NCBI GenBank assembly: GCA_019056805.1
Contig: DXJG01000009.1
Coordinates: 156,015-188,014, forward strand
DNA from: Candidatus Baldrarchaeota archaeon
Lineage (GTDB): Archaea > Asgardarchaeota > Baldrarchaeia > Baldrarchaeales > DXJG01
Direction of reading: 5' to 3'
Length of the DNA stretch: 32,000 nucleotides
Below are positions 1,652 to 4,343 of this stretch, in pieces (positions within the stretch are counted from its first letter, which is position 1; the number at the start of each line of letters is the position of its first letter). Under the pieces are notes generated by a model that did not search any database, was not told the origin of the DNA, and saw only the letters and a list, made by a program, of their open reading frames with translations. Position numbers and translations under genes: made by a program.

Positions 1652-3002
1652 TTAAAATCCTTTTTCCTTCAAGAATTTCTCAATTATATCTCTTAGGTCT
1701 GGCTTTCCTATTTCTTGTAGCTCGTATCTCACTCTTAATACTGGCTTATCTACATCGATTAATCGTCTTATATCAATTGGAGTCCCAGTTACAACGATGT
1801 CACACTCTGTTCTTTTAATCGTCTCTTCTAATTCCTTTATTTGCTCTTTACCATAACCCATTGCCGGTAAAACAGGTCCCAGATGAGTGTATTCTTCATA
1901 AACTTCTTTTATTGAACCAACAGCGTAAGGACGCGGATCTATAATCTCCTTAGCTCCAAATTTCCTAGCAGCCAAGTAACCCGCTCCAAAAGGCATATGG
2001 CCATGAGTTACCGTGGGACCATCTTCAACTGCCAATACTCGTTTACCTCTAATCATTTCGGGGTTGTCAACAAACAATGGCATTGCTGCATCAATAATTA
2101 TCGCGTTTGGATTGATCTTTTCCAGATTTCTCCTAACTTTTTCAATGTTTTCTGGAGGTGCGGTTTCAACTTTATTTATAATAAGTACATCTGCCATTCT
2201 TGCATTTGCTTCCCCTGGATATGCACCAACTTCTTGGCCAGCTCTATGAGGGTCAGCCACAACAATGAAGAGATCTGGCTTATAAAATGGGAAATCGTTA
2301 TTTCCACCATCCCAAATAATTAAGTCAGCTTCTTTCTCAGCTTCCCTAAGAATTTTTTCATAATCTACGCCAGCATATACTACAACACCCCTATCGATAA
2401 GTGGCTCATATTCTTCTCTCTCCTCTATGGTACATTCATAGCGGTCTAAATCTTCATAAGAAGCAAATCGCTGACATACCTGTTTTCTTAAGTCTCCGTA
2501 TGGCATTGGATGTCTTATAACAACAACTTTAATACCTTTCTCCTTAAGGAGATCTACAACTCTTCGCGTAGTAGGACTTTTACCGGATCCTGTTCTTACA
2601 GCGCAAATAGCTATTATTGGGACCTTAGATTCTAACATTGTAGATTTTGGACCCATAAGTCTAAAATCAGCACCAGTGGCTAGAACCATAGAAGCTTTGT
2701 GCATAACATCTTCATATACCAGATCGCTGTATGCTAATATCACTTGTTCTACATCAAATTTTTTGACAAGTTCCGGTAATTGTTCCTCAGGGTATATTGG
2801 TATGCCATTTGGATAGTTGGGACCAGCAAGTTCAGGTGGGTATTTTCTCCCAGTTATATTTGGAATTTGAGCTGCTGTAAAAGCAACGACCTCATACAAA
2901 TCATTATTTCTAAAATGTACGTTAAAATTGTGGAATTCGCGAGCCCTCTTAGGGCTTGTCGCGTCCAGCAGCACCCATAATTATTACCTTTATCTTTTTC
3001 AT
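1652..3002 (-). CDS. COG2403 P-loop 'predicted GTPase' (cyclic 2,3-diphosphoglycerate synthetase-related family), two exons: 3002-2958 and 2935-1652, spliced product 442 aa
   Basis: ATG at 3002 with GGTGA RBS 8 nt upstream. Exon 1 MKKIKVIIMGAAGRD plus exon 2 FHNFNVHFRNN... gives the family N-terminal motif GAAGRDFHNFN. P-loop AVRTGSGKS; WDGGNND, EDGPT and PAMGY motifs. The ORF-track start at 2974 (MLLDATSPKRARE) reads through intron sequence and lacks the motif. Confidence 0.88.
2936..2957 (-). other. Putative 22-nt bulge-helix-bulge intron in a protein-coding gene
   Basis: Minus strand: UGGA-CGCG-AC|A-AGCCCU-AAG-AGGGCU-CGCG-AA|U-UCCA. 4-bp central helix, two 3-nt bulges, 6-bp inner stem, 4-bp outer stem. 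Cuts after the 2nd nt of each bulge give GGA CGC GAC | TTC CAC in frame. Unspliced frame hits TAA inside the insert. Confidence 0.9.
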
Positions 3003-3212
3003 TCCATAACTCACCTTCTGTTTTTATTACGTCTTTTAACGACGTCTAAAACTTACATCTTTATCTTATTAAACTATTTTCCTATATAACAATCACAACT
3101 AGCTATTTATCCTGTTTAATGTTAAATGTTTTAACTTAATTTTGCAAAATTTTTCTTCATACTATTTAAGAAAAAGTAAAAGGCAAATTATACATGTGAA
3201 ACTCAAAAACAT

Positions 3213-4243: not shown

Positions 4244-4343
4244 GGGCCCGTGGCCTAGCAGGATAAGGCGGCGGCCTCCTAAAATCTCCTCAAAGATTGT
4301 AGAAAGCCGCAGATCCCGGGTTCGAATCCCGGCGGGCCCGCCA
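4244..4343 (+). tRNA. tRNA-Arg(CCU) with 23-nt intron at 37/38 (4282-4304) and encoded CCA
   Basis: Acceptor GGGCCCG/CGGGCCC, discriminator G, CCA; anticodon stem GCGGC/GCCGC with CCT at 4278-4280; T-loop TTCGAAT; intron AAATCTCCTCAAAGATTGTAGAA forms a relaxed BHB (central CUCC/GUAG with one mismatch, inner AAUCU/AGAUU). Confidence 0.95.

Follow-up and report, generated by a model that had tools for sequence, protein, structure and literature searches.

The stretch considered here is a window of 32,000 nt from contig DXJG01000009.1 of a Candidatus Baldrarchaeota archaeon (assembly GCA_019056805.1; the genome holding the window is called G000 below), and the element in question is a 22-nt insert that interrupts a gene for a COG2403-like protein on the minus strand. 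The preliminary description of this locus, made from the letters alone, had noted an ATG at 3002, a 22-nt insert carrying a TAA and a frameshift, and a resumption of the protein as FHNFNVHF, and the minus strand reads exactly so. The insert (2957-2936) is AAGCCCTAAGAGGGCTCGCGAA, which contains the in-frame TAA and displaces the reading frame by +1, and the frame downstream opens with TTC at 2935 (FHNFNVHF...) and continues unbroken to the stop at 1652. Excision after the second nucleotide of each of two 3-nt bulges in the predicted fold (AC|A and AA|U) places GAC next to TTC and yields MKKIKVIIMGAAGRDFHNFNVHF; this GAC|TTC junction restores MKKIKVIIMGAAGRDFHNFN, which matches the N-termini of the intronless orthologues P0008 (Baldrarchaeota by its source name) and P0009. 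These orthologues are 90-91% identical and begin with MKKIKVIIMGAAGRDFHNFNVYF; AGAAGGTGA is also found upstream of the ATG in intronless orthologues, and the motif IMGAAGRDFHNFN is present in essentially all of the listed homologues. It had been claimed that excision would restore the family motif, and this holds, the predicted N-terminus being that of the intronless orthologues with IMGAAGRDFHNFN invariant. The same orthologues carry the GAAGRD N-terminus, which removes the objection, raised at the outset, that members of the family might simply start at 2974. Gene callers do choose a GTG at that position, as the preliminary description had expected of a misannotated intron: the resulting open reading frame (ORF) crosses the insert in another frame and acquires the artefactual N-terminus MLLDATSPKRARE, and public records P0002-P0006, which cover this gene and its 97% relatives, are all 440 aa long and start in this way. 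The true product should be 442 aa in length. The features of the locus are collected in Table 1, in which the insert is entered as a predicted bulge-helix-bulge (BHB) intron.

Table 1. Features of the interrupted COG2403-like gene and predicted elements of its RNA fold (window coordinates; hBHBh', helix-bulge-helix-bulge-helix; MFE, minimum free energy).
Feature	Position	Strand	Basis or remark
Shine-Dalgarno-like GGTGA	3011..3015	-	read from sequence; 8 nt 5' of ATG
Exon 1, ATG + 14 codons, MKKIKVIIMGAAGRD	2958..3002	-	equals N-terminus of intronless P0008/P0009
Predicted BHB intron, 22 nt, phase 0	2936..2957	-	between Asp and Phe codons
Exon 2, FHNFN..., 427 codons + stop	1652..2935	-	COG2403-like 'predicted GTPase'
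GTG, false start of gene callers	2972..2974	-	ORF list; database proteins P0002-P0006
Complete hBHBh' motif	2929..2970	-	MFE fold and allele comparison
Outer helix	2967-2964 with 2934-2931; extra 2970-2969 with 2930-2929 past bulged C2968	-	
Central helix	2963-2960 with 2941-2938	-	
Bulge 1	2959-2957	-	predicted cut 2958/2957
Bulge 2	2937-2935	-	predicted cut 2936/2935
Inner stem; loop	2956-2951 with 2947-2942; loop 2950-2948	-	

The insert is genuine DNA sequence. Two further studies yielded contigs with zero differences over it (X3 2700-3066; X4 2700-2995), and a hydrothermal-vent assembly contains an allele, 97% identical, with the same 22 nt and the same exon 1 but flanks that differ at several positions. 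An assembly artefact, which had been named as one way in which the intron could prove illusory, is thereby removed, as the insert occurs in the DNA of independent samples. The same-genus genomes G001 and G003, and the contigs of P0008, are without the 22 nt at the orthologous locus and have the same neighbour genes on both sides, so that the intron is a clean presence/absence polymorphism. At the RNA level, the unconstrained MFE structure of 2980-2920 (-18.2 kcal/mol) is a helix-bulge-helix-bulge-helix, composed of an outer helix UGGA/UCCA with two further base pairs beyond a bulged C, a central CGCG/CGCG, two 3-nt bulges on opposite strands and an inner stem GCCCU/AGGGC with a 3-nt AAG loop.

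The same junction is occupied in many other archaea. A search pattern of the flanking codons placed 10-40 nt apart was scanned against 185,579 species genomes and against metagenome contigs, and the D|F junction was found to be occupied in 44 of the species genomes and in 55 metagenome contigs. All 44 carrier genomes are archaeal and fall under about ten phylum names, bacterial genomes with the intact pattern being uncounted. The carriers belong to Nitrososphaerota (14 genomes, mostly Caldarchaeum), Thermoplasmatota (9), Aenigmatarchaeota (8), Thermoproteota, Bathyarchaeota and Methanobacteriota (2 each), and Nanobdellota, Nanohalarchaeota, Promethearchaeota and Borrarchaeota (1 each), and a further three have no phylum name. 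Within the phylum, 3 of 400 genomes are carriers, namely G000 and two of another family (Promethearchaeota; Candidatus Borrarchaeum). The preliminary proposal of an mRNA intron in an Asgard archaeon is therefore supported in substance and needs correction in scope, as the element is not peculiar to one Asgard genome but conserved in position over many phyla. Insert length ranges from 14 to 37 nt and the inner hairpins of different lineages are unrelated in sequence; the likeness of the G000 stem AGCC/GGCU to the Bathyarchaeia allele L056 is within chance expectation.

Some features of these alleles can be recorded alongside. At the loci L034-L132, Thermoplasmata have, for example, a 31-nt GC-rich type of hairpin, Caldarchaeum 23-30 nt GGGYYY types and Bathyarchaeia a 37-nt GGUCACUAG type. 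Minimal introns of 14 nt, with an inner stem of just 2 bp, occur in one Aenigmatarchaeota and one Nanoarchaeota genome. The 'internal TGA' seen in Thermoplasmata matches was considered as a sign of second introns and rejected, as these are the real stops of the genes, and junctions initially scored as 'not found' turned out to be intronless alleles with the variant motifs FHLFN, FCLFN, FWNFQ and FHDFN.

Comparison of the alleles provides the main evidence on structure. In the 4-bp register the central helix is paired at 4/4 positions in all 101 instances and in all 76 distinct alleles; when the partner strand was slid by -4 to +4 none of the 76 was paired, and shuffling of partners among alleles left 35 of the 76 paired on average and 47 at most. 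The Arg codon of the exon covaries with the 3' tetramer of the intron in seven combinations, two of them G-U variants (CGUG/CACG in 30 alleles, CGCG/CGCG in 24, CGGG/CCCG in 12, AGAG/CUCU in 4, AGGG/CCCU in 3 and the G-U variants in 3). For a formal covariation count we took the 31-nt length class, whose 26 alleles come from several phyla and align without gaps. In this set the central helix is 100% paired and one of its positions shows four Watson-Crick types, two-sided changes are present at all 6 inner-stem pairs, and covariation is 0.389 compared with 0.128 in shuffles (0/500) and at most 0.11 in slid registers. The presence and absence of the intron and the compensatory stem changes for which an alignment of orthologues had been recommended are thus both seen. 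The exact BHB appears in the free MFE structure of 43 of 77 alleles, as against 0 of 1540 intron-shuffled controls.

The coding sequence on either side is constrained as well. Each of the 76 inserts changes the reading frame or contains an in-frame stop, including 18/18 of those with a length divisible by 3, and so none can be read as extra residues. Carriers have Gly GGA in 71/76 and Phe UUC in 75/76; in 27 intronless Asgard alleles the counts are 12 for GGA and 11 for UUC. The exon 1 strand [R/K]x[R/K][V/I/T][I/V/L][I/V], a region outside the search pattern, is kept in 77/77 carriers, and an in-frame start codon is present in 75/77, most often 8 codons upstream. This pattern of constraint fits an intron whose exons must be joined, and it argues against a pseudogene, an alternative start, regulation by cleavage only and ribosomal bypassing.

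G000 encodes the machinery that such an intron would need. There are two EndA paralogues (PF01974; G000:C9:197884-198129 and C9:13779-14039) and an RtcB gene (G000:C9:161691-162998). Two such paralogues have been read as an (alpha-beta)2 enzyme in a preprint on Asgard tRNA introns (10.64898/2026.10.13.758758), and the EndA pair of G000 fits an enzyme of this kind. ARAGORN reports only 18 tRNA genes in G000, of which 12 are interrupted, and the splicing pathway must therefore be heavily used in this genome. In the window itself, Rfam matches a tRNA at 4244-4340 on the plus strand (97 nt, model positions 1-71, so interrupted by about 26 extra nt), for which ARAGORN makes no call. Probably many of the interrupted tRNA genes of G000 are missed by this program.

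We propose that the 2957-2936 insert is an intron spliced by EndA and RtcB, and we hold this to be highly probable. The Ala-Gly codons of exon 1 would provide UGGA, the 5' side of the outer helix, and its Arg codon together with the first base of Asp would provide CGCG, the 5' side of the central helix; the intron would contribute a small hairpin and the complementary CGCG, and exon 2 the UCCA of its Phe-His codons. EndA would then cut each 3-nt bulge between its second and third bases (AC|A and AA|U), and RtcB would ligate GAC to UUC, so that the frame would be restored as GAAGRD|FHNFN with the junction GGACGCGAC|TTCCACAAT; the excised 22-mer would probably be circularized. Unspliced mRNA would give only a 17-residue peptide that ends at the UAA of the intron, and production of the enzyme would therefore depend on the tRNA-splicing machinery. 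It is by inference that we speak of cleavage and ligation in vivo, of circularization and of any regulatory role. Because the strict canonical hBHBh' is found in all lineages, the element should be a substrate for every type of EndA, including the strict euryarchaeal one.

A number of observations count against splicing as the explanation. In the strict MFE structure one A-U pair slides, with A2959 replacing A2957 opposite U2942, and the central helix becomes one of 5 bp; this 5-bp register would leave the frame unrestored. The single-sequence z-score is -1.83, so the fold alone is not significant, and its significance comes from the comparison between alleles and not from the single fold. The intron begins just 45 nt from the start codon, where ribosomes could compete with folding of the BHB. 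Two genomes of the same genus are intronless, from which it follows that the intron is dispensable for the gene. The search pattern demanded intact flanking codons, and degenerate copies, that is pseudogenes, would consequently have been missed. With regard to the fold, the helices and bulges of the preliminary description are all present in the MFE structure, which departs from it by the slid A-U pair; the 4-bp register that it gave is isoenergetic with the MFE, is the sole register that restores the frame and is backed by 76/76 alleles.

One alternative is that EndA cleaves the transcript and the ends are not rejoined, the element being a device that destroys or down-regulates the mRNA, with no full-length protein made from this allele. 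BHB geometry alone predicts cutting and not ligation, and the close relatives are intronless, both of which agree with such a device. However, the frame and the invariant motif are regained on excision in all 76-77 alleles, exon 1 retains its start codon and its coding constraint and exon 2 is a full-length conserved ORF in all lineages, which would be surprising if the exons stayed apart; RtcB is also encoded, and we regard cleavage without ligation as unlikely. Retention of the insert, with the protein started at GTG 2974 or at a later codon and so made without the GAAGRD loop, would agree with the 440-aa ORF given by gene callers. It would also mean that the first 13 residues are wrong-frame exon 1 plus intron, for which no homologue has a counterpart, in a protein family whose listed homologues have IMGAAGRDFHNFN as an invariant feature. 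Exon 1 is itself conserved, its Shine-Dalgarno sequence and ATG having counterparts at the corresponding position in orthologues, and no such ORF is conserved in other alleles because their inserts differ in length and sequence; an alternative start is in our judgement very unlikely.

Another possibility is that the gene is a recent pseudogene into which chance or mobile DNA has been inserted as a hairpin, since its frame is broken and the gene is intact in genomes of the same genus. Against this, exon 2 is full length and has no further defect, the insert is unchanged in the 97% allele despite diverged flanks, and about ten phyla have an insert at this very site, together with an exon codon that covaries with it. 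Nor does the insert look like mobile DNA: it is single-copy in G000 even with 4 substitutions allowed, and so is no repeat or miniature inverted-repeat transposable element, and no target-site duplication was found when the sequence at the junction was read. We consider a pseudogene extremely improbable. Much the same can be said of translational recoding, in which the ribosome would bypass the 22 nt by hopping of the T4 gene 60 type or cross them by programmed frameshifting. A stable hairpin directly after the break and a stop codon soon after it would suit such a mechanism, but reading of the insert found neither matched take-off and landing codons (GAC ... GAA|UUC) nor a slippery heptamer, and the inserts (14-37 nt) fall in all three length classes modulo 3. 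Their sole shared property is BHB geometry with exon-intron covariation, which recoding does not need, and the carriers are all archaea; recoding, too, has next to no probability in our view.

The preliminary description had suggested that more such introns may exist in the genome, and this expectation is met by the genes for aIF5B, CTP synthase and probably Kae1. The aIF5B/IF-2 gene, a Pfam-confirmed host, has a canonical BHB intron of 33 nt (G000:C10:39163-39195, plus strand = L136:664-696) in the switch-I motif, EAGGI|TQHIGA. It is present in all four genomes of the genus (G001-G003 and G000) and, with a different hairpin, in G004, is absent from G315 and shows compensatory stem changes. 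A canonical BHB intron of 32 nt in phase 2 interrupts the CTP synthase gene pyrG (G000:C9:155012-155043, minus strand = L137:1813-1844) at KIDP|YLNVD; the remaining three genomes of the genus share it, and it is absent from G004 and G315. Both introns are genus-wide and have compensatory changes, and the coding-sequence introns of G000 all lie inside invariant motifs. Two further candidates were noted. A kae1-like gene has a 17-nt candidate (G000:C9:291057-291073, plus strand) with an 8-bp exon-exon helix, whose excision would join KSLICIGIESTA to HTLGVGI at the junction GIESTA|HT. The leader of a homologue of cdhB, for the epsilon-subunit of CO dehydrogenase/acetyl-CoA synthase, has a 42-nt candidate (G000:C6:114510-114551, minus strand = L138:811-852) with a perfect BHB and an 8-bp outer helix that includes the start codon; it ends 6 nt before the ATG and is possibly a 5'-untranslated region (UTR) intron like that of Haloferax HVO_1309.

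Genome-wide searches of G000 for the motif were of varying use. A strict-geometry BHB scan had little power, with 1566 motifs compared with 1583 in the reversed sequence, and an MFE-exact scan (12 passes, 10 in the control) was too conservative; the 22-nt intron itself fails the MFE-exact test because of the isoenergetic A-U slide. Energy scoring combined with an ORF-rescue filter gave 10 candidates compared with 2 in the control, and about five of the 10 look real. A candidate at G000:C2:37889-37922 was rejected as its fold is not a BHB.

The history of the intron can be followed within lineages and on a protein tree. Among relatives of a Caldarchaeum genome 14/19 alleles have the intron, and among relatives of a Thermoplasmata genome 9/19 do; inheritance within lineages is stable, and the intron has been lost and/or gained repeatedly. 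A protein tree of 90 alleles calls for at least 11 changes of intron state; well-supported branches force 4 or more of them, and shuffled states need 30 on average. Placement of all carriers in one clade is rejected (delta log-likelihood 342, approximately unbiased test p = 3e-62), for a group that was defined after the tree had been seen. The G000 allele groups with those of G001 and G003 under full support; both of these lack the intron, and so do the alleles nearest to the group. Parsimony on this tree slightly favours a recent gain of the G000 intron at a bond that is occupied elsewhere, and differential loss may be the explanation instead. Overall, the history may be that of an ancient intron with many losses or one of recurrent site-specific gain.

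Inteins and homing introns are known to settle in invariant protein motifs. A wider hypothesis, which we put forward tentatively and think possible rather than probable, is that a position-specific intron persists at or re-enters the same COG2403 bond across about ten phyla, that BHB mini-introns behave like mobile elements in invariant motifs, and that housekeeping mRNAs (those of aIF5B, CTP synthase, Kae1 and probably more) are spliced by the tRNA machinery. If this were true, the splicing of mRNAs by protein enzymes would belong to the normal course of gene expression in the closest prokaryotic relatives of eukaryotes.

Few comparable introns have been described. The pre-mRNA of the pseudouridine synthase gene cbf5 has a BHB intron in Crenarchaeota (Watanabe 2002; Yokobori 2009, PMC2738675). 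The cbf5 introns are confined to Desulfurococcales and Sulfolobales, are mostly of an unconventional BHB type tied to a hetero-oligomeric EndA and sit at the codon for the catalytic Asp (PMC2738675); the same paper mentions unconfirmed predictions in Sulfolobus genomes and 12-bp elements in the virus SIRV1. The present intron shares with cbf5 a short intron within the coding sequence, a BHB at the boundaries with the cut between the second and third bulge nucleotides, location at codons of an invariant or catalytic motif, lineage-specific loss and misannotation as a frameshift or pseudogene. It differs in that the host is a COG2403-like GTPase, and so no member of the cbf5 family, that all alleles have a strict canonical hBHBh' and that its carriers go under about ten phylum names, among them DPANN, Thermoplasmatota, Nitrososphaerota, Bathyarchaeia and Asgard; for cbf5, splicing was shown by cDNA, whereas the intron here is known from DNA. 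In Haloferax volcanii, the HVO_1309 mRNA has a BHB intron in its 5' UTR (Schwarz 2020, PMC7714728), a paper in which cbf5 is given as the only case reported before. HVO_1309 is likewise an mRNA substrate of the tRNA splicing endonuclease, and its intron must be removed for efficient expression. In contrast to the intron described here, that of HVO_1309 is in an untranslated leader where it interrupts no reading frame, is known from a single species and has had its splicing proven by knock-down of EndA and cleavage in vitro. BHB introns of tRNA and rRNA have the identical motif, with a 4-bp helix and two opposite 3-nt bulges, the same predicted enzymes and a similar size range; here, however, the substrate is a translated mRNA, and the exon halves are the constrained codons GGA CGN GAY and UUC CAY.

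A further comparison is with eukaryotes, in which HAC1/XBP1 splicing is carried out by IRE1, acting on twin stem-loops, together with tRNA ligase or RtcB and is regulated by stress. Both cases have a very short frame-changing mRNA intron handled by a protein endonuclease and a tRNA ligase independently of the spliceosome, and in both translation of the functional protein depends, or here would depend, on splicing. The difference is that IRE1 acts on twin stem-loops and EndA, as predicted here, on a BHB. HAC1/XBP1 mRNA splicing is also mentioned in PMC13149111.

In the searchable literature we found nothing on this intron, on an intron in the COG2403 family or on BHB introns in Asgard protein genes; that literature holds one confirmed coding-sequence BHB intron (cbf5) and one 5'-UTR intron over more than 20 years. 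The present intron is mechanistically of the cbf5 kind, and its novelty lies in the host gene, the strict canonical motif, a spread over about ten phyla and the Asgard context with its sister introns. A second host gene with overwhelming backing from comparison, found in DPANN, Thermoplasmatota, Methanobacteriota, Nitrososphaerota, Thermoproteota/Bathyarchaeia and Asgard, would show that splicing of mRNA by the tRNA machinery is no crenarchaeal oddity and is not limited to endonucleases of relaxed specificity. Splicing of archaeal mRNAs looks far more widespread than the single published coding-sequence case would suggest. For annotation, the consequence is that present gene calls are in error, and genes of this kind may be taken for pseudogenes or go missing from metabolic reconstructions. 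The locus also offers a natural experiment in which codon choice and RNA structure constrain each other, with an Arg codon that covaries and GGA and UUC that are nearly fixed. As several introns lie in invariant motifs of essential Asgard genes, their gain, loss and mobility become directly testable, as does the question of where RtcB-dependent splicing of mRNA in the manner of HAC1/XBP1 came from.

The host protein itself is poorly placed among known families. Walker A (GSGKS) and NKVE motifs are visible in P0001, the protein of exon 2; Pfam gives a marginal match to CobW/HypB/UreG, and an NCBIfam search of the protein returned no family. In the PDB there is a partial and distant match to the true cyclic 2,3-diphosphoglycerate (cDPG) synthetase 9sxb (E 1.4e-9, over about 100 residues). 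The family would best be called COG2403-like, only distantly akin to cDPG synthetase on sequence, and the label of 'metabolic P-loop enzyme' that the preliminary description had used was too specific. No homing-endonuclease gene was found among the neighbours of the intron, and the adjacent gene encodes a xylose-isomerase-like TIM barrel.

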